From an uncultured bacterium (lineage in GTDB: Bacteria; Fermentibacterota; Fermentibacteria; Fermentibacterales; JCC-6), in contig CAZSKU010000003.1 of assembly GCA_964607515.1 (NCBI GenBank), positions 7,154 through 71,153 on the forward strand: a stretch of DNA of 64,000 nucleotides, written 5' to 3'. Position 1 is the stretch's first letter; every line of letters begins with the position of its first letter. A program made the translations under genes and the position numbers. Positions 1,733 through 62,640 of this stretch are shown here, one piece after another. The notes under the pieces were generated by a model that was not told where the DNA came from, did no database searches, and was given only the letters and a program-made list of their open reading frames with translations.

Positions 1733-1733
1733 T

Positions 1734-48024: not shown

Positions 48025-49547
48025 AGACCACCAGGCGCGCCGTATCCCCCTTCTTCGCCGCGGCCATATTCACCGCGGCCATAGCGGTACCCTCCGCCCC
48101 GGGCGCCGATTCACCTCCGCAGCTTCCCGTTATGCTGGCACTTTCCGCGGGCATTCTCATATCCGTGGTGTTCAACGGGTTTTCCACCTCCGGGACCCCG
48201 CTCTCGGTTTTCCCCTTCATGCTCACCGTTTCCGCGGTCCTTCAGCGCTCCCTCGCGGCGGGGCTGGTGTTCTCGACGGTGGCGGGAGTGGGTTCCCTGT
48301 TCCTGGAGTCCAGGCTCGGGCTGGAAAAATGGCAGGGAAGAAAGGGTTTGGCGGAGATGATCGCCTCGACTCTCCTGCTCTGCCGGATTCTCTCCCTGCT
48401 GGCGGGCATCGGGGAGGAAACGGTTCCGGGCCATTCCCTGGGTGCCGGGCTGGCGATCCTCCCGGTGCTCACAGGTCTGTCGGTGCTGGCCCTGCGGATT
48501 CTGCCGGCCCCCCCGGAACTCCGGACCGGCGGCGCCACAAGGCTTCTTTTCAACCTGCTGCCGATCCCGGTCGCCTTTCCGCTGCTGGAATACATGCCGG
48601 ACTACGGTTCCCTCCCGGTCCCTCTGGCCGGATCGGTGTTCCTGGTGGGGGTGGTTCAGGTCGGCACCTTCCTGCTCAGCTCCAGACGCCGGTCCCTGGA
48701 GAGAAGCATGGAAATGGAAAAGGCTCTGGCGGACCTGACTTCGGCCCTGTCCTCCGCCGGCAACCGGGCGGAGGTTCTTCGAATGGTGGCGGATGAACTG
48801 CTCCGGGGCAGCGGTGCCACCAGGGTTACCGTCACCCACGACAACCTTTCCGTATCACTGCCTGTACAGCCGTCGCCTCCGGGATGCAGCGTGAGCAGGG
48901 ACGTCCAGGGACTGAGAGCCGTGCTGGAGTTTCCGGTTATGCCCCTGGTCAGCCCGGAGAGGGTGGATGCATTCCTGACCAGAACCGGGGTGATGCTGCA
49001 GTGGATCACCGTGAGCGAGACCATCACCCGGGAGACATGGGAGAGCGTCGAGACCCTGGTGCTCTCTCTGGAGCGAACCGATGAGAAGGTGGCGGACTTC
49101 AGCAAGAGGGTTGCCCAGACGGTATCCGGCCTGGCTGAACACCTGGGTTTCGACAGCTGGACCGTTCATTCCCTGAGGATCGCTTCGCTGCTCCACTCCG
49201 GCTCAGGAGCCGTTTCGGGAAGCCTTGAAAGGGACGACTCCGAACCGGAATCCCCCGGTATCTCCCGGATCACCCTGGACGCCATGAAGTACCAGGGAGA
49301 GTGCTGGGACGGTTCGGGCGCCAGGGGGCTTCGGGGGGAGGACATTCCCATGGCCGCCAGAATACTGGCCGTGGGAATAGGCTGGGAAAAGGCTTTCACT
49401 GCCGGAGGCGTCAGGGAAGCTGAAAAGGCCATGAGAATAGGAAGCGGCCTGCTCTACGACCCTTCCCTGGCGCTGGCCCTGACCGAGTTGAAACGCCGGA
49501 CGGCCCCGGAGGAGCCGTCCGGCGTGTCCGTCAGTGGTCGATGGTGA
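48018..49547 (+). CDS. Membrane-anchored degenerate HD-GYP-like protein (catalytic HD and GYP residues not conserved)
   Basis: TM-rich N-terminus. C-terminus aligns with the preceding gene but reads 'HSLRIASLLHSGSGA' and 'CWDGSGARGL' where HD...DGSGYP is expected. ATGGTGA overlap with the upstream gene. Confidence 0.55.
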   Translation: MVKTTRRAVSPFFAAAIFTAAIAVPSAPGADSPPQLPVMLALSAGILISVVFNGFSTSGTPLSVFPFMLTVSAVLQRSLAAGLVFSTVAGVGSLFLESRLGLEKWQGRKGLAEMIASTLLLCRILSLLAGIGEETVPGHSLGAGLAILPVLTGLSVLALRILPAPPELRTGGATRLLFNLLPIPVAFPLLEYMPDYGSLPVPLAGSVFLVGVVQVGTFLLSSRRRSLERSMEMEKALADLTSALSSAGNRAEVLRMVADELLRGSGATRVTVTHDNLSVSLPVQPSPPGCSVSRDVQGLRAVLEFPVMPLVSPERVDAFLTRTGVMLQWITVSETITRETWESVETLVLSLERTDEKVADFSKRVAQTVSGLAEHLGFDSWTVHSLRIASLLHSGSGAVSGSLERDDSEPESPGISRITLDAMKYQGECWDGSGARGLRGEDIPMAARILAVGIGWEKAFTAGGVREAEKAMRIGSGLLYDPSLALALTELKRRTAPEEPSGVSVSGRW

Positions 49548-52077
49548 GCATTCCCTCGCTGTAGACCTCGAAACTCCCGTCCAGCGTCGGATCCGAAAGC
49601 ACGCCGTAGATGTAGTAGCTGCCCTCCGGCACCCCGCTGCAGTCCCACAGGTAGTCGCTGAGGTAGTCCGGGCACTGGATGTCGGACGATATGGGAACAA
49701 GTCCCCCCGAAGGATCGGTGTCGGTGTCGTAGTACAGGTCTACGGTTCGCCCGGAGGGCCCCACCGAATACCACTCCAGATTGTAGCTGTCGTCCGCGGT
49801 GGCCCCGGGGGGCGGCGGTGAGTAGAATGACATCCAGAGAGGTTCCCGGTCGATGGTCAGAGTGCCTTCGCTGTAGTCGGCAAGGGTCTGCTGGGGGTTT
49901 TCCAGCTTCGCGTAGATGTAGTAGACCCCCTCCGGGGTGGCGGAGCAGTCCCAGGAGTATTCGAACTCGTCCCACTGGATGCCCCCGGTTATGAAGGTCA
50001 TTCCGTTCCCTGGATCCGTGTCCACATCGTAGTAGAGGCTCACAGTGCCTCCGTAGGGAGTATCGGCTGCCCACTGGACGGTGTACTCGGTCTGGGCATA
50101 GGCCCCCCAGGGCGGCGGGGCGGTGACGATGATGTAGCTGTATTCGTGGGTGACCGAGAGGGTGCCGTCGCTGTAGTCAGCCGCGAAACCGTCCGATCCT
50201 GGATCGGGTCTTCCCAGGGAGGGATCGTATATCACCGCGTAGACGTACCAGTCGCCCTCGGGGACCATGCTGGTGTCCCACAGGTAGCTTCCGGTGTTGG
50301 GCAGCCCCTCGGCGATGGGGTACAGCTGGGAGGGGTTGTTGTCGCTGTCATAGTACAGGGCGATGGCACTGCCCGAACCGCCTGCCGCGGTCCACTGCAC
50401 GGCATAACTGCTGTCCGCGGAAGCTCCTTCCGCCGGAGGCGCTGTGACTGTGATGCTGTAGCCGGAGTGGTCAACCGTCAGGGTGCCCTCGCTCCAGGCG
50501 CTGCCGGAACCCTTCAGATCCCGTGGATTCCGCTGCCTGGTGTCGGTCACGAAACCGTAGATCCAGTACACACCTTCGGGAACGTCCGAGCAGTTCCAGT
50601 TGAACTGCCCCGAGTTCGGGGTGCCCGCCACGATGCTGTGCAGGGTTCCACCGGGCTGGTTGGTGGTGCTGTAGAAAAGATACACCCAGGTGGATCCATA
50701 GGGGGCGTCGGTGTCCCACTGCAGCAGGTACTCCTCGTCCGCCGAGGCTCCTTCCGGCGGTGGAGCGGTGAAGGTGAAGGTGTACTCCTGCCCGTGGACG
50801 ATGCTCACTGCGCCGGCGCTCCAGTCACTGCCCTGGCCGTCGCTCTCCAGGGCGGCGAACACGAACCAGTCGCCCTGGGGAACCATTGAGGTGTCCCAGA
50901 GGTGCTCCCCGGTGTTCTGCACCCCGGAGGCTACGGGATACAGGGGCGCTCCGGAAGTGTCCGCGGCGTAGAACAGCGACATCGTCGCTGAACTCGGTGC
51001 ATCGGACTCCCATTCGACCAGATAGCTTTCATCCGCCTGGGCCCCCTCCTCCGGAGGCGCCGTCACCGTGACGTAGAACTGGGTGTCGTGGGCGATGTTC
51101 AGGGTTCCCTGGCTGTAGTCCGAGGCCAGGATGCCCCGGCACGCTCCACCCACGGGGGCAGCTCCGCCCCGGGCCCCCTTGGCCGGGGACATGAGCGCGG
51201 CGTAGACGTAGTATGAGCCCTCCGGCACGTCGGAGCAGTCCCAGGTGTAGTAGCCGTCGTTGTACAGGTTCTGGGCGACAGGTTCGAGCCCTTCGGAGGG
51301 GTCGGTGTCAGTGTCGTACCAGAGGGTCACCGTGGCCCCGGAAGGAGCTTCGCTGAGCCACTCGACGGTGTAGTAGCTGTCGGCGGACTCCCCTCCGGCT
51401 GGTGGTTTCTCGACTGTAATCCAGGGATCCTCCCCGTGGTTGACGTACAGGGTTCCCAGGCTGTACCCAGAGGCGGTCTCCTCCCCGTCGGTTATCTCGG
51501 CCCGGACGAAGTAGAATCCGTCAGGGACCTGCGAGCAGTCCCATAGGTACTGCCCGGTATCTTCGAGCCCCGAAGCTATCTCCGTCAGCCCCTGGTCCGG
51601 AAGGGTGTCGGTGTCCATCCAAAGGGTCACCGTTCCCACCTGGAACCCGGAAGAAACCCACATAACCGTATACGATCCGTCCGCCATGGCGCCCTCGGCG
51701 GGAGGGGCGGTCACCGTTATTCCGGGCTGGCCCTGGCTGTGGTCCACCGTGAGGGTTCCGTCGGAGTAGTCCGAAACCGCCTCCATTCCGCTGGTGAGCA
51801 CGGCCCTGACGTAGTAGTCGCCGTTGGGGACGGCCGCCAGGTCCCATTCGAAGGCTCCGGACACCGGCCGGTCCCCGGATATAAACTGCTGCCCTGAGGG
51901 GCTCTGGACGGTGTTGTAGTAGAGAGCCACCGAACCGCTGCCCTGGCCTGTCCACTCCACGGTGTAGGAGTCCGAGGCGGAAGCTCCCTGGACCGGTGGC
52001 GCGGTGACCGTCACCGCGAGCCCTCCGGAGGGTCCCGAGGGGTCGTCCCCGCAGGAAAGCAGCAGAAGGAACAGCAT
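49531..52077 (-). CDS. Large surface lipoprotein (848 aa) built from eight ~100-aa tandem repeat domains
   Basis: Lipobox 'MLFLLLLSCGDD'. Eight repeats each carry 'VTAPP-EGA-AD-SY-V-W ... LYYD-D ... Y-WD-S-VP-G-YYVYA ... GTL'. The ORF's first 91 codons are rejected. Confidence 0.7.
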   Translation of the reverse strand: MLFLLLLSCGDDPSGPSGGLAVTVTAPPVQGASASDSYTVEWTGQGSGSVALYYNTVQSPSGQQFISGDRPVSGAFEWDLAAVPNGDYYVRAVLTSGMEAVSDYSDGTLTVDHSQGQPGITVTAPPAEGAMADGSYTVMWVSSGFQVGTVTLWMDTDTLPDQGLTEIASGLEDTGQYLWDCSQVPDGFYFVRAEITDGEETASGYSLGTLYVNHGEDPWITVEKPPAGGESADSYYTVEWLSEAPSGATVTLWYDTDTDPSEGLEPVAQNLYNDGYYTWDCSDVPEGSYYVYAALMSPAKGARGGAAPVGGACRGILASDYSQGTLNIAHDTQFYVTVTAPPEEGAQADESYLVEWESDAPSSATMSLFYAADTSGAPLYPVASGVQNTGEHLWDTSMVPQGDWFVFAALESDGQGSDWSAGAVSIVHGQEYTFTFTAPPPEGASADEEYLLQWDTDAPYGSTWVYLFYSTTNQPGGTLHSIVAGTPNSGQFNWNCSDVPEGVYWIYGFVTDTRQRNPRDLKGSGSAWSEGTLTVDHSGYSITVTAPPAEGASADSSYAVQWTAAGGSGSAIALYYDSDNNPSQLYPIAEGLPNTGSYLWDTSMVPEGDWYVYAVIYDPSLGRPDPGSDGFAADYSDGTLSVTHEYSYIIVTAPPPWGAYAQTEYTVQWAADTPYGGTVSLYYDVDTDPGNGMTFITGGIQWDEFEYSWDCSATPEGVYYIYAKLENPQQTLADYSEGTLTIDREPLWMSFYSPPPPGATADDSYNLEWYSVGPSGRTVDLYYDTDTDPSGGLVPISSDIQCPDYLSDYLWDCSGVPEGSYYIYGVLSDPTLDGSFEVYSEGMLTIDH
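49580..52030. repeat. Intragenic tandem repeat region (~300-nt period, eight copies, diverged at DNA level)
   Basis: The periodicity is seen in the translated protein. Codon-level divergence between copies argues for old, selected repeats rather than recent slippage. Confidence 0.6.
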
Positions 52078-52103
52078 GGAAACCGCAGCCGGCAGCCTTC
52101 GGA

Positions 52104-55004
52104 TCACCTCGACACCTCCCCGGACAGGTCGTGGAGAGGTATCACGACCGGGTTGTCGAACCTGGGCGTCGGAGGCCCACCCCCGGCGGCGGACGACGGG
52201 TCGCCGGCCCCCGGGACGAAGCCGCCGGGCGACACGCCGTTTATAGCGCCGTGGGTGATGTTGGACAACCAGGTATCCGAGCTGAAGAACCTGAGCCCGT
52301 CGATGTTCCATCCGCCTTCGGTGTTCGCGGAGTTGCTCAGCATGCGCCACCGGAAGATCACCTTCCTTCCGGCCCCGAACACCGGAAGGTTGTCAACCCG
52401 GTAACGGTAGTAGCCCCATCCCGAGGATATGCCGGAGGTGGTGAGCACCGGATGCCATGTTGAGGGGGCCACGTTGCCGAATTCCGCCACCTCCAGGTAT
52501 CCGTAGTCCTGGTCGGACTCGAAGCGGGGACAGGCGTAGAACTCGACGTAGGCGTAGGTGTCGTAGTTGTCCAGGGTGTAGTGCATGGGAGGGGTGATCA
52601 GAGCGTTGTGCTGGCTGTTCTCGTACCGGTAGTTCCACCAGCGGTCGGACCAGTACCCGCTGTACATGTCGTTCCCGGCCCAGTTCTGGCCGTCGGGGGT
52701 GGAAAGCGGGTCGTACGATCCGCCGGTTACCTTGGTGTAGGCCATCCAGTCGGCCATCTCGTAGACCTGCATGTTCCAGATTATCTGCGGCCAGTCGGCC
52801 CCGGGCCTGCTCCGGGTGTAGTCCACCTCCCAGCCGGTGTTTGACGAGTTGCCCACGGTGCCGTAGTTGAACCTCAGACGTACCTGCTTGCCGGCGTACT
52901 CGGTGATGTCTATGACCGAGAAGTTCCACATGGTGCCCGATGTGCTGCCGGTCCAGCCCGGCTCCATTTCCAGGGCCGGAACCGCCGCGGTGTAGTAGCC
53001 CCAGTAGGGAACGATGAGACGCCATGTTTCGCCGTTGTTCTCGGTTATCTTCACGTTGCATCCGTCCCCCTGGCTGCCGAAGCTGTACCTGTGGAAGAAA
53101 GCCACCGCCAGTCTCTGACCCTCGGCGTAGGATGACAGGTCAATCACGGGACTCTGCAGCCACGCCCTCGTCGGAGTCTGCTGATAGCTGCCGCTTCCTG
53201 CGGTGGCGTAGCACCAGCTGCCTGAGTAGGCGGCGTGGTTCGATGGAATCCATTCGTCGGTGGTGTAGCCTGGCCAGGGTCCGTGGGACCATCCGGCCAT
53301 GCCCCATCCCATCTCCTCGATAGCTATCTGGTCGCAGGCTATTCCCCTGACGGGCATCGGCTGGTCGCCCCTCTGGGCGAAGCCGATGAGGAACGAGTCG
53401 GTGAAGGGTATTCCGGCCTGCTGGGCGGCCTGGGTCAGGTCCACCGTGGCCTCGGTCCAGCCGGGAAAACTCTCCGGGGCTGCGAGGATCCTGTGACTCA
53501 TGTCCCAGTAGCCTTCGCTGCCGGTGGAGACCACCACGTTGTCTATGCTGATTCCTCCGTCGCCGGTGGGGGAGACGGTGCAACCGGTTCCCTGCTGGGC
53601 GAACACTATCCGGGTGTTGGCAAGATCGTAGCCCTCGGGGATCAGATCGGAAAGGTTGATAACCACCTGGGACCAGGACCCCGGGGGGTACGCCCCGGGA
53701 TTGAGAGCCACCTGGGCCAGCGGAGTGCTGTTGATCCCCCCGGGCCCCATGATTCCTACGAAATCGTTGGCGGTGGTGATGTCGCCCCGGTTGCACATGT
53801 CGAAGGTCAGGGCGATGTCCGAACCCGCATAGGCGGAGAGGTCCAGGGTCGCCATCACCCTGTTGGTGCCGGTGTAACCCTGCCGTCGAGTGTCGAGGTT
53901 CAGGTAGGGACCAGTGGCGGGGAACTCTTCGGTCACCTGAACCCTTCCGTAATCGTTGGTCCAGAAGGTCCAGCTCCTGGGAAAACCGTTCCGGAAACCG
54001 CTGAAGTCCTCGTTGAGCACCTCCACCTGGCTGTCGGGCACCCATACCGGAAGGAAGACGCCGTCCTCGTAGTCGAGAAGGTCGCTGAACTCCCTCCAGA
54101 AGAAATGGAGCCGCAGCTCATCGCTCCAGGTGTATTCCGACAGGTCCACCCGCCAGATGGCCATCTGGGTGCTGTACCCCTGCCGGTGGCAGTCCAGGGC
54201 CAGACAACTGGCTCCCTCAAAGGCCTCCGGATCGGTCCAGCGGCGGATCCTTCCGTAGCCGTCGTCCTCGATCCACAGCTGCCAGTCGGCGTTCCAGCTG
54301 ACCGGATCCTCGAAGTACTCGGTGATCACGGGAACCCACATGTCTCCGGCCTCCATGAAGTCCTGAAAGGCAAAGCTGCTGGCGACCTCGAAGCTCTCCT
54401 GGAAGACCGTGTTCTGGTAACGGGACCCGCCGTCTTCACCGTATGAGGCGAACAGGTCCCGGAGCATCGCCGGGTCGCCGGCGGCGGCCAGGTTGTACGG
54501 GGAGACGCTTCCGGAAACCTCCGCCCCGCCCGGGGAGGAGAGGGTGTAGTCGATGCGCCTCACCAGTGCCGGTTCCGCGACCCTGTTCCCCGAGGCATCG
54601 AAATAGTCGAAGACCAGCTCACCCGGAAAACCGGGATGGACTTCCCGGCCCGCGGCGTCGCGAACGGTGACCGTTCCTCCGGCGGACATCACGGTGATGG
54701 TGTCCTCGGGGCCGAAGGCTTCGGGGGCGTCCAGGTTGGCCACCACGGTAAGTCTGTGGTTTTCGGATGCCAGTACCGGGCACCAGACACCGGGAAACAC
54801 GTTGCCCATGTAGCCGGCGTTCGACAGGAGCACTTCCAGTCGGGCCGCGACCAGTCCGGCGTCCGCCTCCGCCGCCTGTCTGGCAGCGTTTTCAGTGGCC
54901 CGGCCGGTCCCCTGGATGAACAGGTACAATCCTGCCAGGACCACACCCAGAAGGACCATGGCCAGCAGCCCCTCCACCAGGGTGAATCCCTTCTTGGTTC
55001 TCAT
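52104..55004 (-). CDS. Giant (966 aa) type IV prepilin-signal protein: PilW-like minor pilin fused to adhesin-like C-terminal modules (MAM/choice-of-anchor-J-like)
   Basis: N-terminus 'MRTKKGFTLVEGLLAMVLLGVVLAGL' is a class III prepilin cleavage/methylation motif (G|FTLVE). The remaining ~900 aa are beta-rich, with 'GGWNIDGLRFF' near the C-terminus. Confidence 0.75.
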   Translation of the reverse strand: MRTKKGFTLVEGLLAMVLLGVVLAGLYLFIQGTGRATENAARQAAEADAGLVAARLEVLLSNAGYMGNVFPGVWCPVLASENHRLTVVANLDAPEAFGPEDTITVMSAGGTVTVRDAAGREVHPGFPGELVFDYFDASGNRVAEPALVRRIDYTLSSPGGAEVSGSVSPYNLAAAGDPAMLRDLFASYGEDGGSRYQNTVFQESFEVASSFAFQDFMEAGDMWVPVITEYFEDPVSWNADWQLWIEDDGYGRIRRWTDPEAFEGASCLALDCHRQGYSTQMAIWRVDLSEYTWSDELRLHFFWREFSDLLDYEDGVFLPVWVPDSQVEVLNEDFSGFRNGFPRSWTFWTNDYGRVQVTEEFPATGPYLNLDTRRQGYTGTNRVMATLDLSAYAGSDIALTFDMCNRGDITTANDFVGIMGPGGINSTPLAQVALNPGAYPPGSWSQVVINLSDLIPEGYDLANTRIVFAQQGTGCTVSPTGDGGISIDNVVVSTGSEGYWDMSHRILAAPESFPGWTEATVDLTQAAQQAGIPFTDSFLIGFAQRGDQPMPVRGIACDQIAIEEMGWGMAGWSHGPWPGYTTDEWIPSNHAAYSGSWCYATAGSGSYQQTPTRAWLQSPVIDLSSYAEGQRLAVAFFHRYSFGSQGDGCNVKITENNGETWRLIVPYWGYYTAAVPALEMEPGWTGSTSGTMWNFSVIDITEYAGKQVRLRFNYGTVGNSSNTGWEVDYTRSRPGADWPQIIWNMQVYEMADWMAYTKVTGGSYDPLSTPDGQNWAGNDMYSGYWSDRWWNYRYENSQHNALITPPMHYTLDNYDTYAYVEFYACPRFESDQDYGYLEVAEFGNVAPSTWHPVLTTSGISSGWGYYRYRVDNLPVFGAGRKVIFRWRMLSNSANTEGGWNIDGLRFFSSDTWLSNITHGAINGVSPGGFVPGAGDPSSAAGGGPPTPRFDNPVVIPLHDLSGEVSR

Positions 55005-55066
55005 TCTTCGCCGCCTTTCCAGGAAACAGTGATTGCCGATTCTATCATAATGTCATCCGATTCCCT

Positions 55067-56413
55067 TCAGAAATCCTCCTCCGGCACGTCCATTAGCCAC
55101 GAGACCGGTGTCCACTTCCATACCTGGGGAAACCCCGGCGGATGTCGGGACACCAGTCCCGGATCCATGGCGATGCCCAGGGTGTAGCCGGTGCTTCCCG
55201 AAGAGGTCCAGGAGAACATGCCCGTCGCCAGCCCGCCGTGAATGGCCACCCTGGCGGGATTCCCGGGATACGTGTTGCTTCTGGGCCTGAACCTGCCGGT
55301 TGGAGCCGCCAGAAAGGCTCTGACCATGAACGATCTGTCGGTCTCTATATCCCAGGGGGATTCCCAGTCCTCCCCCCCGATGCAGTCCGGGTCTGTTTCG
55401 ATCACTATGTCCCCCAGGGATACCAGCCCCAGGGGGCCTCCCGCGCCGGCCAGGGCTCCCGTGATGCTCCCTCCCAGCACCAGGTCTCCGGCGCTGAAAA
55501 TCGTGAGGGGAGCGGCGAGGGGGCTCAGGGATTTCAGAACCGTGCCGCTGTAGCCTCCGGAGAGCTGTATGCAGTTCACGCCCCTCAGGGAGAGGGTTTC
55601 CGGGGGAGACTGGATTCCCCGGCGGAAAATGGCCCGGCTGCCGTCCAGAAGCACCCTGGATGCGCTCACGGAAACGGCCCCCTGAAGGCTCGCTCTCAGA
55701 TCGAGAGCCGCCTGCTGCATGTCCACGGGTTCCTGGTTCATCCTCCATGATGGTCTGCCCCGGTTGTGTCTGGGCCACGGCCGCACCCAGGTGCGGCTTC
55801 CCTCGGGGTGAGGAACCCGTGCCATGCCCACGTCCGAGAAACAGACGCCCCCCCGGGAGGTGACGCTCACCTCGTACAGCCATGGGTCGTCGGAGGAGTC
55901 CGGCGAGAAACTGTCGAAGTGGATCGTTCCATTGGAATGCACGGGTCCGTCCACCATGGTCCCCGTGGTGAAGAAGCCCGAAGGGATGTCTCCGTTCACC
56001 GCCAGGGCGAAGCCCGAGAGGAACCTTGGCACCGCCCTGACGATGATCCTGTACTCCTGGGACCTGTAGGACCCCGTGCTTCGGATTTCCGCGGCTCCGT
56101 TGGACGTGGCCGGGTCGCCGGCGGGAAATGGGTGCACCGCGACCGTTACGGTGGAACCGTCAGGCAGGTCCAGCCCTTCGGGGAAAATATCGAAGGGAAC
56201 CCCCGGAAGCGGATCCAGGCCCGCCAGGTGATGCAGGGCAAGGTTCACCCCGGACTCCGCTGCGTAGGCCGCAGCCATCCGGTCGCGCCGGAAGACCGCC
56301 GTATTGACGCTGCTCCGGAAGTAGGCCCATGCTCCCAGCACAAGGATCATCATAACCGCGGCCACCGCGATGACCATGGCCAGCGCCATGCCCCGGCTGG
56401 TTCCCCTTCTCAT
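55067..56413 (-). CDS. PilX-N-domain minor-pilin-like protein (449 aa)
   Basis: 'MRRGTSRGMALAMVIAVAAVMMILVLGAWAYF...AAESGVNLALHHL' resembles the PilX N-terminal domain. Start set at the internal ATG 56413. Confidence 0.7.
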   Translation of the reverse strand: MRRGTSRGMALAMVIAVAAVMMILVLGAWAYFRSSVNTAVFRRDRMAAAYAAESGVNLALHHLAGLDPLPGVPFDIFPEGLDLPDGSTVTVAVHPFPAGDPATSNGAAEIRSTGSYRSQEYRIIVRAVPRFLSGFALAVNGDIPSGFFTTGTMVDGPVHSNGTIHFDSFSPDSSDDPWLYEVSVTSRGGVCFSDVGMARVPHPEGSRTWVRPWPRHNRGRPSWRMNQEPVDMQQAALDLRASLQGAVSVSASRVLLDGSRAIFRRGIQSPPETLSLRGVNCIQLSGGYSGTVLKSLSPLAAPLTIFSAGDLVLGGSITGALAGAGGPLGLVSLGDIVIETDPDCIGGEDWESPWDIETDRSFMVRAFLAAPTGRFRPRSNTYPGNPARVAIHGGLATGMFSWTSSGSTGYTLGIAMDPGLVSRHPPGFPQVWKWTPVSWLMDVPEEDF

Positions 56414-56430: not shown

Positions 56431-57936
56431 CTAGTAGTTGTTGAACATTATCAGACTGTCGTTCAGCGCCGGATCCTCCGTCCAGTAGAGAGTGTGCCAC
56501 CGGCCGTTGTTGGGGAAGTACGGGGGATGCATGGTCATGAGCCTGGTGTCGAAGTACACCTGGATGTCATGCCCGGTGCTATTGGTGCTGGTGTACCCCT
56601 CCTCCTGGATCATGTACCCCCCCACTATCGTCAGTTCCCCCCCGGGGTTGGGGAAGTAGTACCCGTTCTGGTTGTAGCTTCCGCTCAGGATTTGAGACTT
56701 CAGTTCACCGTCCAGGGCCAGGAGCACTGCGTCCACCTCGATGCTCTGGTTGGTGCTTATGCTGAAGCCCTGGTTCCAGTTGGTGTGATTCATCGGGTGG
56801 GCTATCAGTATGTCGCCGTTCACCGACATGAGCCCCAACATGATGTCGTTGTCGGGGTCCAGCGGGTCGTTGTTCTGGTAGAAGAGGTTCCCCGCCAGGC
56901 CGATGTTGCCCATGGTGCCGATCGAGAGCGGAATGCTGAGACCGTCCTCCTGCAGCATTCCGTAGCTCCTGATGTAAACGTTTTCATTCGGGCCCAGAGC
57001 CAGCCAGACGGCGTTCTTCGTGTACTCGGAGAGGGCGTACTTCACCACCGGCGACAGGGAGTTGAGCCTTACCATGAGGGTATCCCGACGGATGAGAATC
57101 CTCATGTTGTTGGCCACGCTGTCCCCCGACAGGTAGAGACCCCCGGTCTGGGCTGCGGTCCTGACCGACGTCCAGTCCAGTTCGTCGCTGCCGAAGGGGA
57201 TAGGTTCGGCGTTCAGCTCGAACCAGGGAACCCCCATCCTGTGCCTGTTTATGGGCTGCATCTGAAGGTTGCCGATTTCCGGTCCGGTGGCCTGCACCGA
57301 GCTGAAGCCCGAGGTTCCGTACAGGTAGTAGGGCGCCGTATTGGTGAAACTGTAGAAAAACGGGTCGTTGCTGTGGCCGGAGGAACCGCTGTAAACGCAT
57401 ACCGGTCCGTTGGCGTAGAAGGGACCGTCGAACTTGTAGCCGTCGCCGTAGTAGCCCGAGGTGCTGGGATTATCCATAAACACGCTGAAACGGGCTACGT
57501 TCTCGGGCATCACCGCGGTGCGCAACCCGTAGGTCAGCAGCCCTCCGGTGCCGCTGATCCCGGCTATCCGCCCCAGTGATCTCACCTCGTAGGCGTTGGC
57601 CGAAAGGACCCGGTCGTTGAGGTCGTTGGGGTCCACCGCCACCTTGGCCACCCCCAGGGGCGCGGGAAGGTCGTACCAGTCGTTGCCCTCGCCGCCCAGG
57701 AACCACTGGGGCTCCGTGCCCTGGGGAACGTCTGCTCCGCCCATGATCATGTGAATCGCCAGGTTGACTCCGGACTCGGCGGTGAGCCTGACCTGAATCC
57801 TCTCCCTGGCCCAGGTCTGGGACCGCCCGCTGGAGCGCAGGTAGGTGTAGGCGGCCCCGGTAAGGATGATCAGGACCAGCGCCGATATGACCACCAGGGC
57901 CAGCGCCGATCCCCGGGAGCGGTGTGTCGTCCGCAT
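56431..57936 (-). CDS. PilX-N-domain minor-pilin-like protein (501 aa), paralog of the downstream gene
   Basis: 'MRTTHRSRGSALALVVISALVLIILTGAAYTYL...TAESGVNLAIHMI'. The ORF's upstream 123 codons are rejected. GAGG lies 6 nt before the ATG at 57936. Confidence 0.7.
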   Translation of the reverse strand: MRTTHRSRGSALALVVISALVLIILTGAAYTYLRSSGRSQTWARERIQVRLTAESGVNLAIHMIMGGADVPQGTEPQWFLGGEGNDWYDLPAPLGVAKVAVDPNDLNDRVLSANAYEVRSLGRIAGISGTGGLLTYGLRTAVMPENVARFSVFMDNPSTSGYYGDGYKFDGPFYANGPVCVYSGSSGHSNDPFFYSFTNTAPYYLYGTSGFSSVQATGPEIGNLQMQPINRHRMGVPWFELNAEPIPFGSDELDWTSVRTAAQTGGLYLSGDSVANNMRILIRRDTLMVRLNSLSPVVKYALSEYTKNAVWLALGPNENVYIRSYGMLQEDGLSIPLSIGTMGNIGLAGNLFYQNNDPLDPDNDIMLGLMSVNGDILIAHPMNHTNWNQGFSISTNQSIEVDAVLLALDGELKSQILSGSYNQNGYYFPNPGGELTIVGGYMIQEEGYTSTNSTGHDIQVYFDTRLMTMHPPYFPNNGRWHTLYWTEDPALNDSLIMFNNY

Positions 57937-57944: not shown

Positions 57945-60900
57945 TCACTTTCCACCGGCGGTACGGCCGAAGAATTGAATGTTGTCCAGGTTCCAGCCGC
58001 CCCGGACTCCGAAGACGCCCGAGTCCAGAACGAACCTGATGTAGTAGCAGAGGTAGGAGGGGTGGTCGTTGAAGTGCTGGGTCAGGTTGATGGTCTCGTA
58101 CTGCCAGTTGTTGTCGTAGAAGCCGTTGTAGGTTCTCACGGTGATCCAGTCGCCCTCCGTCGGAATCTGTTCGGGGTCGGTGCCGAAGGCCAGCTGCACG
58201 TGAGCCAGGTCGTTGGTGGCCAGCCGGAGGCAGCGGAAGAACCTGACGCTCACCGTGTCGTAAACGGCCGCCTCCTCCATGGGGTAACCGCTTGAGGCGA
58301 ACCACGCCCAGGAGTTGTTGTTGTAGTAGCCGTCGGTGGTGAGGTCCGTCCCCGCGACCATGTTAAGGTTAGCGGGAAGCAGGGCCGGATCCACCGCCGG
58401 GAAGAACAGGGGCGCCCCGATCTCCCAGTCGTTTCCGGTGCCACCGGAGGTCCAGGTGACTCCGCTCCCCAGTTCCATGTCCTCGCCGGTGTAGATGGCC
58501 TCGCAGTCGCCGTAGTTGTAGAGGAAGGTCATGGGTACGTTCTGGCTGAACTGGGTGCCGTCGTCGTGGATCAACACGGTCTTGCCGCCGATATTGACCC
58601 GCAGCGCCGGTCTGGTGGTCATGAGGTTCAGAAAGGTGGGCGGCGAGGCCAGGCTCTGGGCCGACCTGCAGGCATTGGTGATCTCCCCGTGGACGAAGTT
58701 CCCGGAAGGACCCAGGGGGGGCTGCACCGTGCGCACCTTCACCACCAGGTTCATTCCCGCGGGAAGGAAGTAGCTTGGACTCACGGGGATGGTCTGCCAC
58801 TCCTCCAGGTTGTTCAGGGTGTACGGGCCGCTGTAGGCGTGGAACAGGCTTTCGGTGTTCAGCATGCCCCCGGAGGGGAAGCTGGTCAGGTCCGTGGCGC
58901 CCAGGTACACGTCCAGCTGCCCGAAGGTGTACTCGGGCACCCAGGTCTTCTTGAAGGCGATCTCCGTAATCTCGTAGCCGTTGATGGTGCATTCCGCAAG
59001 AAAGTCGTCAAGGTACCATCCGGTCTGGGTCACCCCGGCGTCGGAGAAGAACACGAACCGGAACCTGACGCTCTCCCCCTTGTAGGGGTCCAGGTCCACG
59101 TGCTCCATGAACCAGCCCCTGCTCCCGGAGAACACGCTGCGTCCGTTCACGGTGTGGCTGTACGCCAGGCCGCTCTCCGGGCCTAGGTCCGTCCATGGTC
59201 CCCCTGAAACGGACACCTGGACGTAGCCGTAGTCCACCCCGGTCTGCATGCTCAGGGCGTGTCTGAAGGACAGTTCTGGGTCCACCGCCTCCAGGGGCAC
59301 CGAGAACTCCGGCGTGGCGAGCCAGCAGTCGCTGTTGTTGCTGTAGGAGCCTGGATTGTTGGCGAAGAGCGACCACATGAAGTCCAGGGGGTTGGCGGGA
59401 TTCTGCCTGACGCTCCAGTCGTCCACCCCGCCGGGGAAGAAGCCATGGGACCAGCCGGGGATGGTGAGAATCTGTTCTATGATCCCCACCTCGAAGTCGT
59501 CCCAGCTTATCCCGTGGGTGTTCCAGGGGCCCGTTCCTGACTGGCTGAGTACCACTCCGAGAGAATCGTCGAACTCCATTCCGTGGTTCCTCAGGGCTGC
59601 GCTCAGGTCCAGGGCCAGGGTGTTCCAGTCCGGGCCGGCCGACGGAGTCCCTATCCGGGTGTATATGGTGTCGGAGGCTCCGGCTATCACAACCACGTTG
59701 TCCAGGCTTATCCCCCGGTTGCCCGTGAAGTCCGTGGCCCTGCCGTTGTCGTACTGGCCGAAGACGATGTACAGAGGGTTCGGTGGAGTGCCGGAAATGG
59801 AGAAAGTGGTCGAGCGTTCGTGCCACTGGTCGTCGCTGTAGGATTCGGGGGTAAGTTCAGCCGCCGGCGTGACCGGCCCCTCAATGACTCCTGTGGAGTT
59901 CCAGCCGATGAAGTCGCCGGATTCAGCCACCGGATCGTAGGGATGGTCGAGGTCACCGTGGTCGTGGAACCTGTAGTTCACGGTGAATTCTGTGTTGCTT
60001 CCCAGCCCGGTGGTTGGAACCTCTATCATCATCCGCACCCGGCCGTAGGTGTTGTCGGTCCTGCTGTCCAGGGTTGCGAATCCGCCGTCCCCCTGCCAGC
60101 CGTCGGGGCTGTGGATACGGCTTCTTCCGTAAAGGTCCCCCCAGAAGGTCACGTCGCCGGGCGCCAGGAACACCGAGTTGAAGTCCTCGGTGAGCAGGAC
60201 CTGGGGCGAGCCGGAGAGGTCGATGAAGAAAACGCCGTCGTTGAGGCCCACGGTCTCCAGGGAACCGGTCAGGGTGGCCACCTTCAGATAGATGTCGTCC
60301 ACCCAGGCGCTGTAGCCGGTCATGTCCATGAAGGTGCCGGCCACGTTCCTGGTCTCCGCTCCGAAGTCGAGCCTCTGCATCCTCAGGGTTTCATCCACTA
60401 CCGATACGCTGCCCATGGGGCCCAGAGGCATCATGGTCCAGGCGAGCGCCTTGGCGGCGAAATCGTCGGAGTGGATGGGAATCGAGTCGGGCATGATCTG
60501 GGGGTTGTTCAGATCGTCCTCCCACAGGACAACGTTGGTGGACTGCCCGCTCTCTCCCTCGAAGTTCTCCTCCGCTGTTATGGGATCCCCCGGAGTGCCG
60601 CCGCCGCCGCTCCCTCCCAGGGCCCAGTAGAGTACGTTGTAGAAGAAGTCGAGCCCGTCGCTGGAGTAGGTGTTGGCGGAAGGCAGCCCGTAGAGCACCC
60701 GACGGACCGGCAGGAACTCGTCCCTCACGCACACCAGCGCCGGCACGTCTCCGGGAATACTGTCTATTGAGGTGATGTTGGTGGTTTCCAGGGACAGGTC
60801 CAGCAGGTAGTTCATCACCCCTGGAGCCGGGAACATCTCGAAGGTGTCGGCGTCGGGCTGGGCCGATGGAATCTCATAGGGGAACTTGTGTATCTGATGG

Positions 60901-61889
60901 TCGTGCACGACCTTGAAACAGGTCTCGTAAAGGGATGAGGTCATTGGGGTAAGCCCCATGGAGAAGACCAGGGACGCGTCGTCCGGATCCAGGCAGATGA
61001 CCGGGCAGGGGATCGCCTGAAGGGCGCCGCTCATTCCGGAGTGATAGAGAGAGCCGCCGCTGGTGATATCCCTGAGGATCACCAGGTCAATCTCGTTGCT
61101 GACGTAATCGTAGGTGGGCAGGGCATCGTCCGCCAGGGGAATGACCTTCAGCCCCCAGTACTCCATAAGAAGGATCATGGTGTACTCGCCCGGGGTCGGG
61201 GTGAGGGAGTCGGGCTGTCCCGCCACGTTCATCACCACGTTGCCCTCCAGGGGAGGCGGCGGAATGAACGACGGGTCTATGTCCCTGTATACCCCCAGGT
61301 TTCTGGGGCTGATGGTGGTTCGAACCGAGGTCTGGTAAACGTTGCCCATGTAGGTGTCCTGAAGCACCAGCCTCACCCGGATGTGCCTCACCGCGTCACG
61401 GTCCTGCAGGCTCAGGGGCTGGGTGAAGACGTTGCCCGTCTCGCTCAGGTACTCGAACTGAAGGCTGATGATGTTGTGCCCCAGACGGCGCTGCATGGAG
61501 CCGTTGTCGGTTATGTACACGAAGCCGTCCGTTCCCAGCAGCACGTTCCGGTGTTCGTCGTCATCCACCTGTCCCCAGGGAGCCTCGTAATCTGCGTAGA
61601 ACGAGAAGCTTCCCGGTTCGGTGGTCTCAACCGGGTGCCAGAGGTCTCCGTCTATCCCTCCGTGGGGCAGATAACCGGCCCATATAACCTCGTCGGCAAT
61701 CTGCTCCAGGGCGAGCCTTCCGGCGGTGGCCAGCTCGTTCTGCCTCCGGCTGAAGTGGAACTGCTGCATTCCCTTGGTGAAGAAGAGGAAAACCGCGGCG
61801 AAAATCACCCCGAGGACGCCGATCACTATCGCCAGCTCCACCAGGGACATTCCCCGAAGCCGGCGGTTGCCTGATTCACTGAGCCTCAT
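57945..61889 (-). CDS. Giant (1314 aa) type IV prepilin-signal protein: PilW-like minor pilin fused to repeated MAM/choice-of-anchor-J-like beta-sandwich modules
   Basis: 'MRLSESGNRRLRGMSLVELAIVIGVLGVIFAAVFLFF' prepilin motif (G|MSLVE). Downstream modules end in 'GISLDNVVV', 'TGWYLDDFLAEC' and 'GGWNLDNIQFFG'. Confidence 0.75.
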   Translation of the reverse strand: MRLSESGNRRLRGMSLVELAIVIGVLGVIFAAVFLFFTKGMQQFHFSRRQNELATAGRLALEQIADEVIWAGYLPHGGIDGDLWHPVETTEPGSFSFYADYEAPWGQVDDDEHRNVLLGTDGFVYITDNGSMQRRLGHNIISLQFEYLSETGNVFTQPLSLQDRDAVRHIRVRLVLQDTYMGNVYQTSVRTTISPRNLGVYRDIDPSFIPPPPLEGNVVMNVAGQPDSLTPTPGEYTMILLMEYWGLKVIPLADDALPTYDYVSNEIDLVILRDITSGGSLYHSGMSGALQAIPCPVICLDPDDASLVFSMGLTPMTSSLYETCFKVVHDHQIHKFPYEIPSAQPDADTFEMFPAPGVMNYLLDLSLETTNITSIDSIPGDVPALVCVRDEFLPVRRVLYGLPSANTYSSDGLDFFYNVLYWALGGSGGGGTPGDPITAEENFEGESGQSTNVVLWEDDLNNPQIMPDSIPIHSDDFAAKALAWTMMPLGPMGSVSVVDETLRMQRLDFGAETRNVAGTFMDMTGYSAWVDDIYLKVATLTGSLETVGLNDGVFFIDLSGSPQVLLTEDFNSVFLAPGDVTFWGDLYGRSRIHSPDGWQGDGGFATLDSRTDNTYGRVRMMIEVPTTGLGSNTEFTVNYRFHDHGDLDHPYDPVAESGDFIGWNSTGVIEGPVTPAAELTPESYSDDQWHERSTTFSISGTPPNPLYIVFGQYDNGRATDFTGNRGISLDNVVVIAGASDTIYTRIGTPSAGPDWNTLALDLSAALRNHGMEFDDSLGVVLSQSGTGPWNTHGISWDDFEVGIIEQILTIPGWSHGFFPGGVDDWSVRQNPANPLDFMWSLFANNPGSYSNNSDCWLATPEFSVPLEAVDPELSFRHALSMQTGVDYGYVQVSVSGGPWTDLGPESGLAYSHTVNGRSVFSGSRGWFMEHVDLDPYKGESVRFRFVFFSDAGVTQTGWYLDDFLAECTINGYEITEIAFKKTWVPEYTFGQLDVYLGATDLTSFPSGGMLNTESLFHAYSGPYTLNNLEEWQTIPVSPSYFLPAGMNLVVKVRTVQPPLGPSGNFVHGEITNACRSAQSLASPPTFLNLMTTRPALRVNIGGKTVLIHDDGTQFSQNVPMTFLYNYGDCEAIYTGEDMELGSGVTWTSGGTGNDWEIGAPLFFPAVDPALLPANLNMVAGTDLTTDGYYNNNSWAWFASSGYPMEEAAVYDTVSVRFFRCLRLATNDLAHVQLAFGTDPEQIPTEGDWITVRTYNGFYDNNWQYETINLTQHFNDHPSYLCYYIRFVLDSGVFGVRGGWNLDNIQFFGRTAGGK

Positions 61890-61903
61890 CGTCTTCACCC
61901 CCC

Positions 61904-62272
61904 TTAGAACAGGATGCTGAGGCTGGTGGAATCGGCCCCTTCGGGGCCGTTCCAGGTGACCCGGCATCTGACGAGTTTCGCCGCCGGGTACTCCGAATAG
62001 GGTGTGGAGATGACCACGACCCTCTCGAAACCCTCCGGAAGCACCTCCAGCGGGCCGGCGCCGTCGGGCATGGAAGCCACGTCCAGGGTGCGCATCTCCT
62101 CGAGCTTCTCCCGGCAGTACTGAAGCCCCTTGGTCATGAGATCCATCTCGTTCGAGCTTCTGACGATGTGGAAGAAGAACACCGCGATTCCCGCCACGAT
62201 GATGGCCAGCAGAATGGACGCGATGACCACTTCCATAAGGGTGAAACCGCCGCTGCCGCGGATTCTGTTCAT
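61904..62272 (-). CDS. PilV/GspI-like minor (pseudo)pilin
   Basis: 'GSGGFTLMEVVIASILLAIIVAGI' prepilin motif, ~120 aa. Confidence 0.7.
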   Translation of the reverse strand: MNRIRGSGGFTLMEVVIASILLAIIVAGIAVFFFHIVRSSNEMDLMTKGLQYCREKLEEMRTLDVASMPDGAGPLEVLPEGFERVVVISTPYSEYPAAKLVRCRVTWNGPEGADSTSLSILF

Positions 62273-62640
62273 GGACAGGCCTCCTGACTTCTAACGCTGA
62301 ACTCCCTTGACAACTCCACAGAAATAGAATCTCCCCTGAAAACCCTGACCGAAAGGAGCCGGGTGTGGTCGCCGGTCCAGATCAGGGATGTTCTGACTCC
62401 GTATCCACGGCCCATGATGGTATCCTCCCTCTGGGCCGTGAAGGGTTCCGGAAGGGGCTGCATGGCCTGGATCTCCTGCGCCTCCAGGGTCGCCAGGGTG
62501 AGAGCGTCGGAGCGCATCTCCAGATTCCTGCTTCCCCGGAAGAAATAGCGCAGCGCCATGGCCAGCACGCCCAGCACGAGCACCATCACCAGGCCCGCCA
62601 CCACCACCTCCACCAGGGTGAATCCCCTCCTCTTCATCAT
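62269..62640 (-). CDS. FimU/GspH-like minor (pseudo)pilin
   Basis: 'MMKRRGFTLVEVVVAGLVMVLVLGVLA' prepilin motif, ~125 aa. Confidence 0.7.
   Translation of the reverse strand: MMKRRGFTLVEVVVAGLVMVLVLGVLAMALRYFFRGSRNLEMRSDALTLATLEAQEIQAMQPLPEPFTAQREDTIMGRGYGVRTSLIWTGDHTRLLSVRVFRGDSISVELSREFSVRSQEACP

Follow-up and report, generated by a model that had tools for sequence, protein, structure and literature searches.

A probable giant modular type IV minor pilin with five predicted jelly-roll domains in a Fermentibacteria operon with a duplicated minor-pilin set

Modular pilins combine a pilin module with at least one domain that is not specific to pili, and they are the accepted route by which simple type IV filaments gain functions. 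Few of them have been studied. Streptococcus sanguinis provides two, PilB, in which the pilin is joined to a vWA domain, and PilC, in which it is joined to a ConA-like lectin (PMC8179133, PMC9934059). In Thermus the GspJ/XcpW-like pilin TTHA1219 adjoins ComZ (PMC5131608, PMC6561018). The PilY1/PilC proteins are not pilins; they have a Sec signal, carry a beta-propeller at the C-terminus and are held by a 12-residue plug (bioRxiv 10.64898/2026.09.18.752573). Cyanobacteria possess two core minor-pilin sets with a beta-solenoid PilX, for which two specialised pili served by one machinery have been proposed (bioRxiv 10.64898/2026.02.12.705559). The modular-pilin principle behind the protein described here is already known; none of the studied examples is this large.

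The gene for this protein, G2, lies in an operon within a 64-kb window, the whole stretch of DNA that was analysed (Table 1). A previous sequence-only reading had described its product as a giant protein of 966 residues with a prepilin signal, and this description holds. The G2 start codon is the first possible one in the open frame, and the N-terminus reads MRTKKG followed by FTLVEGLLAMVLLGVVLAGLYLF. The leader is short and basic and ends in Gly, with an aromatic residue at +1, a position for aromatic residues or Met in class III signals, and Glu at +5. The Pfam family N_methyl (PF07963) reaches 28.8 bits with the full-length protein and 31.7 bits with its N-terminal fragment (cut-off 21.2), and TIGR02532 scores 19.0 bits (cut-off 16.3). 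There are 21 full-length orthologues with 45–93% identity, and G6, T8, L9 and E11 are invariant in their alignment. Scanning the genome contigs with G2 returned one locus. The GC3 of G2 is 0.83, similar to that of the neighbouring genes, and horizontal acquisition is not indicated. A phage origin of G2, or of its paralogue G1, was rejected, as PHROGs gave no matches for either.

Table 1. Coordinates of the operon genes, the G2 protein regions and the spacer within the 64-kb window.
Feature	Coordinates	Strand	Description	Basis
Lipoprotein gene	49531..52107	-	858 aa; lipobox LLLLSC19; 8 Kre9/KNH-type Ig-like repeats	Pfam Kre9_KNH, E 1e-25
G2	52104..55004	-	966-aa modular type IV minor pilin	ORF and translation; N_methyl and TIGR02532 above cut-offs
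G2 leader	54987..55004	-	class III (prepilin) leader MRTKKG, predicted to be cleaved before F7; +5 Glu at E11	sequence reading
G2 pilin module	54480..55004	-	aa 1-175; alpha1 helix 9-60 and beta-sheet; ends at invariant P169-x-N171-L172	
G2 D1	54027..54419	-	aa 196-326; beta-sandwich like reelin subrepeat B	AF2 model; reelin is top Foldseek match
G2 D2	53517..54026	-	aa 327-496; jelly-roll closing in GGISIDNVVV	AF2; homologous to G1 aa 566-739
G2 D3	53301..53516	-	aa 497-568; small beta domain	AF2; homologous to G1 aa 741-802
G2 D4	52800..53300	-	aa 569-735; MAM / choice-of-anchor-J-like jelly-roll closing in GWEVDY	family and structural matches
G2 D5	52269..52658	-	aa 783-912; second MAM-like jelly-roll, closed by GGWNIDGLRFF	AF2 model
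G2 tail	52107..52268	-	aa 913-966; C-terminal, Gly/Pro-rich	pLDDT <50 over aa 919-966; alignment
Spacer	55005..55066	-	62 nt; candidate internal promoter, TGATAGAAT at 55039-55047 and SD-like GGAAAGG	
X2	55067..56413	-	448-aa ComZ-like beta-solenoid minor pilin (GspK/PilX position, no +5 Glu)	AF2, pLDDT 82.5
X1	56431..57933	-	500-aa X2 paralogue	BLASTP, 29% identity over full length, E 1e-35
G1	57945..61892	-	1315-aa G2 paralogue; ~250-aa extra insert, additional C-terminal domains	BLASTP, hhalign
S2	61904-62272	-	small prepilin, 122 aa	prepilin motif, N_methyl
S1	62269-62676	-	small prepilin; probable start 62640, giving 123 aa	prepilin motif, N_methyl
First operon gene	62637..63995	-	452 aa; N-terminal hydrophobic helix, weak FG-GAP match	translation and Pfam

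The AF2 model of G2 is of moderate confidence (mean pLDDT 65.7; 50–78 in the pilin part). It shows residues 1–175 with the predicted fold of the core minor pilins of the GspJ/PilW/PilA3 class, a long N-terminal alpha-helix packed on a beta-sheet, and the module is structurally similar to GspJ-class pilins, with the PilA3 fold. The genomic context is also that of the GspJ class, as G2 adjoins the ComZ-like X2 and X1 and the small prepilins S1 and S2. The same module is found alone in proteins of 186–208 residues. At the sequence level the module does not belong to the Pfam families PilW or T2SSJ. Ten N-terminal fragments covering it matched only N_methyl in Pfam at E<=10, with no PilW, GspJ, GspH or other minor-pilin family, and an NCBIfam GspH match spans the helix only. 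PDB searches with full-length and pilin-module profiles gave matches confined to the N-terminal helix of assorted pilins.

Beyond the invariant PxNL of the pilin module G2 contains five jelly-roll domains of the reelin/MAM/CBM type, which makes it a modular pilin in the sense given above. Residues 236–319, within D1, are present in up to 22 copies in other giant proteins, and the giant proteins that share this region match the Pfam families Reelin_subrepeat-B and BNR. D3 also recurs as a repeat in other proteins. D4 is the most conserved part of G2, with 57% identity to the far clade compared with 37% for the pilin module, and conservation of the grafted domains in general exceeds that of the pilin module. 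D4 has a homologue in the MAM / choice_anch_J domain of G1. In G1 both families score above their cut-offs (MAM 34.4 bits, choice_anch_J 38.9 bits); in G2 InhA-like_MAM reaches 25.2 bits on D4, slightly below its cut-off of 26.9, and choice_anch_J reaches 19.4 bits (cut-off 30). NCBIfam gives matches on D4 to choice_anch_J and to accessory domains of M36 peptidases. For D5, alignments were obtained with both the MAM domain (E 1e-5) and the C-terminus of G1. The G2 domains resemble one another only marginally in sequence (E 0.003–0.02); we therefore consider them old and diverged and not recent repeats.

The structural matches of these jelly-rolls include CBM4/11/22/30/61, modules that bind hyaluronan, alginate and porphyran, reelin repeats, the gingipain adhesin domain and the MAM domains of neuropilin, PTPmu and meprin. 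No catalytic family matched G2 in Pfam and NCBIfam scans. The predicted likeness to MAM domains, carbohydrate-binding modules, reelin repeats and the gingipain adhesin domain makes a binding or adhesin role for the G2 body plausible.

The sequence-only reading had a long beta-rich body ending in GGWNIDGLRFF. The beta-rich body stands, the ending does not, as this motif occupies residues 897–907 (nucleotides 52284–52316) and is followed by a Gly/Pro-rich tail of 59 residues, mostly predicted with low confidence, in which only P956 and E963 are invariant. G1 ends in GGWNLDNIQFF and seven further residues. The shared motif forms the last strand of a type of jelly-roll that is found repeatedly within each of the two proteins, and is no special terminal signal; comparable closing strands within G2 are GISIDNVVV and GWEVDY.

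That G2 is paralogous to the other giant gene of the operon, as had been proposed, is borne out well past the N-terminal helix, by BLASTP over residues 286–728 (E 2e-28) and by profile–profile comparison with hhalign over 706 columns (E 1e-47). A similarity confined to the helix would have spoken against this proposal, and the comparisons show otherwise. The product of the other giant gene has 1315 residues from MRLSESG, not 1314, with its cleavage site between G and MSLVE. The X2 model matches Thermus ComZ (6qvi) in Foldseek with E 2e-9 and probability 1.0. Since X1 and X2, the two genes that separate the giant pilins, are ComZ-like paralogues (beta-solenoid, GspK position), the operon is a duplicated minor-pilin set, putatively of the tip, and the pairs G1/X1 and X2/G2 represent an old duplication. 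The prepilin motifs of S2 and S1 are GGFTLME and RRGFTLVE. A gene of 414–492 codons occupies the first position in all full operons compared, and the gene order around G2 is kept in eight full or partial operon loci. The 64-kb window contains no pilus machinery except a PilT-like ATPase and no prepilin peptidase gene.

The start of the lipoprotein gene overlaps the G2 stop codon by 4 nt (GTGA). This gene directly follows G2 in every locus in which downstream sequence is covered, and its orthologues do not extend beyond the lineage. In three groups of loci (L010, L011/L012 and L013) the slot of G2 is occupied by a plain pilin of 186–204 residues and the lipoprotein gene is absent, and in L002/L003 and L006 the G2–lipoprotein pair stands alone, outside the operon. 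The Sabulitectum operon (L014/L015) stops at X2. In a lineage with 37% identity (L016) the same operon is present, including G2 and the lipoprotein gene, in a neighbourhood that differs on the downstream side. Comparison of the loci shows that G2 and the lipoprotein gene behave as a separable cassette.

The operon genes are all on one strand with short gaps, and the spacer upstream of G2 is the sole gap of more than 17 nt. It is richer in AT than its surroundings and has a minus-strand TAGAAT, as was pointed out before: its G+C content is 46.8% (62–65% in 2-kb blocks of the region), and the hexamer lies at 55039–55044, within TGATAGAAT. The suggestion of an internal promoter here stands in part. 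A −10 hexamer with a preceding TG, as in sigma-70 promoters, is present in TGATAGAAT, and TGnTAnAAT has its only copy in the 64-kb window at this place and is expected in 0.5% of shuffled spacers. An ATGATA(GA) core is conserved 35–50 nt upstream of the start codon in the orthologous spacers of seven in-operon loci, down to 37% protein identity, and is absent where a short pilin replaces G2. A −35 element is lacking: inspection found AAGGGA/AGGGAA and no −35 hexamer at 16–18 nt spacing, and a two-hexamer sigma-70 scan gave no site in the spacer; these conventions may not be those of the host phylum. The single match of that scan (56376–56349) lies inside X2 and is below chance expectation.

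The spacer is consistent with a putative internal promoter, and an extended −10 promoter within it probably drives the G2–lipoprotein cassette. A substantial though lesser chance belongs to transcription of both genes solely by read-through from the operon promoter, with ATGATA acting in translation, in RNA stability or as a site for a regulator, or left over from insertion of the cassette. The arrangement of the operon on one strand with short gaps, the lack of both a −35 element and a two-hexamer match, and the 19% of shuffled spacers that contain a lone 5/6 match to the −10 hexamer by chance all agree with read-through. The rarity of TGnTAnAAT, and a core that is kept in the in-operon loci and lost with G2, speak against it. 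The pair is also independent in other genomes and therefore needs its own promoter there. The conserved motif may also represent a cis element of a different kind.

The best explanation overall, which we consider rather likely, is that G2 belongs, as a modular type IV minor pilin, to the tip (priming) complex of Fermentibacteria. Its class III signal and its family predict that a prepilin peptidase would cut the leader, and that the hydrophobic alpha1 helix would anchor G2 first in the inner membrane and then in the core of the filament. G2 would pair with the adjacent X2, ComZ-like and in the GspK position, and probably also with S1/S2, to form the pilus cap. Domains D1–D5 would be strung beyond the tip as a lectin-like adhesin with a conserved ligand, most likely a glycan or a polymer surface; the ligand may instead be the co-translated lipoprotein. 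Given the duplication of G1/X1 and X2/G2, one operon could therefore build two different tips, and we infer that the giant pilins may be the 'alternative or combinatorial tip adhesins' suggested earlier. G2 shows no allele-like hypervariability: conservation is higher in the grafted domains than in the pilin module, and phase variation is rejected, with only trivial two-copy repeats and no homopolymer or microsatellite array found.

A more ambitious and rather doubtful scenario is that, through a mobile, separately transcribed G2–lipoprotein cassette, an otherwise ordinary core minor pilin of the GspJ class becomes a giant tip that bears a lectin. With the G1-X1/X2-G2 duplication, one operon and one machinery would then give two functionally different pili or tips. 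The surface lipoprotein would serve the G2 modules as their dedicated receptor, dock or chaperone (for example in cell-to-cell or cell-to-particle tethering), and the G2 tail would plug into X2 in the way that the PilC/PilY1 plug fits into PilK.

Other readings of the operon place less weight on adhesion or on the filament. It may be the Fermentibacteria counterpart of Thermus pilA1-3/comZ, with pili mainly for DNA uptake and with G1 and G2 as accessory or DNA-binding tip parts instead of glycan adhesins. The ComZ fold of X2, the PilA3 fold of the G2 pilin module and the proposed role of ComZ/PilA2 as DNA receptor (PMC6561018) point in this direction, as does dprA, which immediately precedes each of the full operons with a covered upstream flank (the L016 flank is not among these). 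The dprA linkage is, however, no stronger than the regional synteny, as obg, an HD-GYP pair, radical-SAM genes and ftsK are also conserved; the downstream neighbourhood of L016 differs, and the jelly-rolls resemble glycan- and protein-binding modules and not DNA-binding folds. We regard a competence pilus as unlikely; the competence and adhesin readings can both be true together.

It is similarly improbable that the class III signal is a mere membrane anchor or export tag, with G2 displayed on a short pseudopilus or on the cell surface and forming a binding layer with the Ig-repeat lipoprotein. Analogues are the T2SS pseudopili and the archaeal 'bindosome' of sugar-binding proteins with prepilin signals. 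G2 is very large for a filament subunit, its lipoprotein partner is obligate and translationally coupled, and the pathways for twitching motility were judged incomplete in the Sabulitectum study (PMC5763382). Against this, G2 belongs to a complete core-minor-pilin-like set with ComZ-like cappers, the PilT-like ATPase of the window is of the retraction type, type IV pilus genes have been reported from Hyd24-12 genomes (PMC5030696), and display of bulky modules at the tip is the accepted model for modular pilins and ComZ (PMC8179133, PMC6561018). An enzyme-bearing pilin, with a peptidase or glycosidase hidden in the G2 body, is very improbable: the NCBIfam matches myxo_dep_M36 and rhom_dep_M36 and the Pfam match InhA-like_MAM recall M36 and M6/InhA metallopeptidases, but they span only the accessory MAM-like domain, and a hidden peptidase is rejected.

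The Fermentibacteria, uncultured and described as non-motile, are abundant as fermenters in digesters and sediments. A conserved lectin-tipped pilus, if true, would bear on their attachment to particles or partner cells. One operon slot holds either a bare pilin of ~190 residues or a pilin with five lectin-like domains and a partner lipoprotein, a natural contrast in which the graft point (PxNL) can be read straight from the alignment. This contrast provides a template for studying how a GspJ-class tip subunit would carry bulky cargo and how such cargo would pass the secretin.

G2 resembles the modular pilins of S. sanguinis in its class III signal, its small pilin module and the binding module grafted C-terminally. 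Such pilins, and G2 with them, would be of low abundance and are expected at the tip, and lectin-type modules are common in the class. There is no sequence relationship to S. sanguinis PilB or PilC, and G2 has five tandem jelly-rolls where these have one module. It further differs in its diderm host, its GspJ/PilA3-like module, its dedicated lipoprotein gene and the paralogous second copy in the operon. At 966 and 1315 residues, G2 and G1 exceed the extreme case of 860 residues in the modular-pilin survey (PMC8179133). Among other large minor pilins, CofB/TcpB of the type IVb systems also have beta-rich domains after the pilin module, and have been proposed as tip-located initiators (PMC8179133).

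The earlier comparison with PilY1 or PilC alleles does not hold. Pfam at E<=0.1 gives only N_methyl and InhA-like_MAM on G2, the signal is of the prepilin and not the Sec type, and anchoring would be by its own pilin module. Homology to PilY1/PilC is rejected, as Pfam and NCBIfam at E<=0.1 give no propeller family and the structural matches are jelly-rolls. The likeness lies in a very large adhesin-like protein that is encoded with minor pilins and presumed to functionalise the tip, and the flexible C-terminal tail of G2 could in principle touch the GspK-type pilin.

Like GspJ/XcpW/EpsJ and PilW, G2 takes its place in a four-member minor-pilin set beside a GspK-type capper (GspI-J-K / PilV-W-X), and its fold is linked to the GspJ class through the XcpW-like TTHA1219 (PMC5131608); it differs in matching no minor-pilin sequence family and in its ~790 extra residues. 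TTHA1219, the PilA3 of T. thermophilus, has 236 residues and no grafted modules (PMC5131608, PMC6561018), whereas G2 has five. The Thermus pilA1-4/comZ locus (ComZ is TTHA1220) contains one set, the operon described here contains two paralogous G–X pairs, and the order of X2 and G2 is inverted relative to PilA3 and ComZ. Paralogous priming sets with beta-solenoid PilX-type cappers are shared with the cyanobacteria. In cyanobacteria these are two separate conserved sets, whereas the duplication described here (G1-X1 / X2-G2) is internal to a single operon and does not extend to the small pilins.

The gene for G2, the giant minor pilin studied here, is a real open reading frame whose product begins with a textbook class III (prepilin) signal, MRTKKG/FTLVEGLLAMVLLGVVLAGLYLF. 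That G2 is a giant prepilin-signal protein, as claimed from the sequence alone, is borne out by this canonical motif and by matches above the cut-offs to Pfam N_methyl (28.8 bits for the whole protein and 31.7 bits for the N-terminal fragment, cut-off 21.2) and to TIGR02532 (19.0 bits, cut-off 16.3). The Gly at -1 and the Glu at +5 are invariant in 21/21 full-length orthologues.

The AlphaFold2 model of G2 was built from 21 sequences and has a mean pLDDT of 65.7, most domains lying at 70-88. It consists of a helix (aa 9-60), a pilin beta-sheet (aa 77-167) and five beta-sandwich domains, D1 to D5 (approximately aa 196-326, 327-496, 497-568, 569-735 and 783-912), followed by a low-confidence tail. 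Structural comparison with the PDB (Foldseek) relates the sandwich domains to known binding folds, namely reelin repeats (E 6e-13), MAM regions (enteropeptidase and meprin), the MAM domain of neuropilin, CBM11, CBM22 and sugar-binding domains of the Fbs1 type. By sequence D1 is of the reelin-subrepeat-B type, and D4 is a MAM / choice-of-anchor-J domain that falls just under the cut-offs in G2 and over them in its paralogue G1. No catalytic family was matched.

The protein had been described as ending in GGWNIDGLRFF. This motif is present at aa 897-907 but is not the C-terminus, a 59-aa Gly/Pro-rich tail, mostly of low confidence in the model, lies beyond it. The motifs GGISIDNVVV, GWEVDY and GGWNIDGLRFF each supply the final strand of a jelly-roll, one after another along the chain, which is why the two giant proteins appear to end alike. 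Among the last residues of the G2 tail only P956 and E963 are invariant, and G1 has no such tail. Speculatively, the tail may form a plug-like contact to the neighbouring minor pilin X2, after the plug of PilC/PilY1.

The pilin module of G2 is a GspJ/PilA3-class minor pilin. No match to PilW, GspJ or other minor-pilin sequence families was found for this module, thus the class is assigned by fold and gene order. Stand-alone pilins of 186-208 aa that match G2 aa 4-175 (E 1e-19 to 1e-29) came from a profile search run exhaustively over 1.84 billion representative proteins. Five of the six end 2-5 residues beyond an invariant PxNL motif (P169-Y-N-L in G2); the alignment thus shows the graft point directly.

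BLASTP of G2 against G1 gives three collinear matches: G2 aa 286-728 with G1 aa 522-962 (27% identity over 459 columns, E 2e-28), the pilin modules (G2 aa 2-177 with G1 aa 10-204, 26% identity, E 2e-8) and the C-terminal domains (25% identity, E 0.03). Aligned as profiles, the two sets of orthologues match over 706 columns (E 1.1e-47). The pairwise and profile alignments therefore uphold the proposed relationship and show that G1 and G2 are true, old paralogues; G1 has one residue more than the 1314 aa given for it. Compared with G2, G1 has extra C-terminal domains and an insert of about 250 aa directly after the pilin module. The insert (about aa 205-450, VVMNVAG...ILLMEYWGLKVIPLADD...DLVILRD) has no Pfam or NCBIfam match.

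The minor pilins X1 and X2 are likewise paralogues, with 29% identity over their full length (E 1e-35). The model of X2 (pLDDT 82.5) combines an N-terminal helix with a small sheet and a beta-solenoid, and its only significant PDB matches are three Thermus ComZ chains (E 2e-9 to 4e-8, probability 1.0). ComZ is a GspK-like pilin with a beta-solenoid insert, for which a capping role on the competence pilus has been argued (PMC6561018). From the two paralogous pairs and the likeness of X2 to ComZ it follows that the operon is a core-minor-pilin (tip/priming) set with its J-type and K-type members doubled, in the order G1-X1-X2-G2. A recent preprint reports that cyanobacteria use two sets of this kind, with beta-solenoid PilX subunits, to prime two specialised pili (bioRxiv 10.64898/2026.02.12.705559).

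Features of the pilin operon and its surroundings (window positions unless a related locus is named)
Feature	Position	Strand	Description
First gene of operon	62637-63995	-	452 aa; N-terminal hydrophobic helix; weak FG-GAP match (E 0.004)
S1, second		-	Small prepilin, 123-135 aa
Probable S1 start	62637-62640	-	13th codon (MMKRRGFTLVE); ATGA overlap with upstream stop codon
S2, third		-	Small prepilin, 122 aa
G1, fourth	57945-61892	-	Giant pilin, 1315 aa counted from MRLSESG; cleavage site G/MSLVE; ends GGWNLDNIQFF plus 7 residues
X1, fifth		-	ComZ-like minor pilin, 500 aa
X2, sixth		-	ComZ-like minor pilin, 448 aa
Spacer	55005-55066		62 nt, 46.8% G+C
Motif TGATAGAAT	55039-55047		Contains TAGAAT
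G2, seventh	52104-55004	-	Giant pilin, 966 aa
G2 tail	52107-52268	-	aa 913-966
Lipoprotein, eighth	49531-52107	-	858 aa; 8 Ig-like repeats
Stem	about 49485-49527	-	Perfect 11 bp (CGCCGGACGGC-N9-GCCGTCCGGCG), then TTTCAA; likely bidirectional terminator
HD-GYP pair	46441-48024, 48018-49547	+	Two tandem HD-GYP-type (HD_5/HD) proteins, convergent with operon
HU-CBM48 fusion	41414-41947	-	177 aa; HU DNA-binding domain fused to CBM48 / AMPK glycogen-binding-type domain
PilT-size ATPase	32684-33793	-	T2SSE family, 369 aa
L010, X1 orthologue	612-2119		Broken into 278-aa and 224-aa ORFs
L016, transposase gene	13061-13909		IS200-type (Y1_Tnp), immediately 3' of lipoprotein gene

In every full operon the first position is filled by a gene of 414-492 aa, which could encode a membrane- or pilin-anchored propeller-like component. 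S1 probably starts at the 13th codon rather than at the start of the longest ORF (135 aa), which would give 123 aa, as in the orthologues. The stem lies directly 3' of the lipoprotein stop codon, within the 3' end of the convergent HD-GYP gene.

The operon position after X2 is found in four states. The complete operon, including both G2 and the lipoprotein gene, is present in the window and in L004, L005, L007, L008 and L009, throughout with dprA upstream and the convergent HD-GYP pair downstream. The distant lineage L016 has the same operon with a G2 of 37% identity and a different downstream neighbourhood. In L010, L011/L012 and L013 a stand-alone pilin of 186-204 aa follows X2 and there is no lipoprotein gene; in L010, where X2 is 40% identical to that of the window, and in L011/L012, the short pilin lies directly ahead of the HD-GYP pair. 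Nothing follows X2 in the operon of Ca. Sabulitectum (L014/L015), and a G2-lipoprotein pair stands alone elsewhere in L002/L003 and L006. The lipoprotein gene is 3' of G2 in every locus whose downstream sequence was covered, the start and stop codons usually overlapping by 4 nt (GTGA in the window). Lipoprotein orthologues occur only in the lineage of G2, often on contigs shared with it. On these comparisons, the G2 modules and the lipoprotein thus behave as a single accessory unit, carried by a conserved pilin scaffold and separable from it. L016 is the most divergent operon and has another genomic neighbourhood. The broken X1 orthologue of L010 reflects a frameshift or an assembly error.

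The presence of two giant pilins had been likened to multiple PilY1 or PilC alleles. Between G2 and the far clade, identity is 57% in D4, 48-51% in D1-D3, 37% in the pilin module and 21% in the tail, so that the grafted domains are better conserved than the pilin module; the lipoprotein is more conserved still (53-73%). No repeat tracts suggesting phase variation were found. This pattern speaks for a conserved ligand and against the allele-like diversity that the PilC comparison implies.

An internal promoter had been proposed in the spacer between X2 and G2. The spacer is AT-richer than its surroundings (2-kb blocks of 62-65% G+C) and contains the reported TAGAAT hexamer. The gaps in the operon are, in order, -40 (-4 if S1 has its likelier start), -4, 11, 11, 17, 62 and -4 nt; the spacer is therefore the only real gap. 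The motif TGATAGAAT is the sole TGnTAnAAT on both strands of the 64-kb window (0.73 copies expected), and this pattern appears in 0.5% of shuffled spacers, compared with 19% for a bare 5/6 -10 hexamer. The spacers of L005, L007, L008, L004, L009 (shifted) and L016 retain an ATGATA(GA) core 35-50 nt ahead of the start codon, and also an SD-like GGAAAGG, amid diverging flanks; the core is missing where a short pilin takes the place of G2. The solo G2-lipoprotein pairs must have a promoter of their own. Against this, no -35 element is visible in the spacer and a two-hexamer scan of it gave no match. On this evidence the spacer is a reasonably good candidate for an internal promoter, with the balance somewhat in its favour.

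Only about 22 orthologues of G2 were found among 5.8 billion clustered proteins (4 full-length representatives at 50% clustering), and the source names of X2 and lipoprotein homologues are Ca. Fermentibacteraceae, Ca. Fermentibacterales or Ca. Sabulitectum. L002 and 'Sabulitectum silens' were obtained from one and the same metagenome. The G+C content of the window (62-66%) agrees with that of Ca. Fermentibacter (about 64%, PMC5030696), and the window itself is ordinary chromosome of a diderm organism, encoding BamD, LolA, SurA, FtsK, Mfd and TyrRS. The PilT-size ATPase, which is PilT-like and isolated among housekeeping genes, is the sole pilus-motor gene found in the window. Most of the related loci (L004, L005, L007-L011, L014) show synteny for the HD-GYP pair; this may reflect a c-di-GMP signalling link to the pilus operon or mere conserved synteny. 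The HU-CBM48 fusion, an unusual combination, is kept in L004, L009, L011 and L014.

What is established for GspI-J-K/PilVWX tip complexes, for ComZ and for modular pilins suggests that the prepilin peptidase would cut G2, that G2 would enter an assembly-priming tip complex together with X2 and the small pilins, and that its modules would be displayed past the tip and serve as a lectin-like adhesin. G1 and X1 would form a second tip, either alternative or co-resident. In the lipoprotein the lipid-modified Cys is followed by GDD (CGDD), which resembles the acidic signal by which Bacteroidota lipoproteins are exported. The lipoprotein may be surface-exposed, and could then be a partner, dock or ligand. 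We regard the picture as a whole as moderately probable.

G2 follows the known modular pilin strategy, in a survey of which (>1,200 proteins, 264 architectures) an 860-residue protein was the extreme case noted (PMC8179133). Like PilY1/PilC, to which it had been compared, G2 is a putative large tip adhesin encoded with minor pilins; it is not a member of that family, however, and is held by its own pilin module. What is new is the size and the combination of a J-class pilin with five reelin/MAM/CBM-like domains, the duplicated J/K pairs inside one operon, an obligate partner lipoprotein with Ig repeats, and the natural variation between short, giant and relocated forms.
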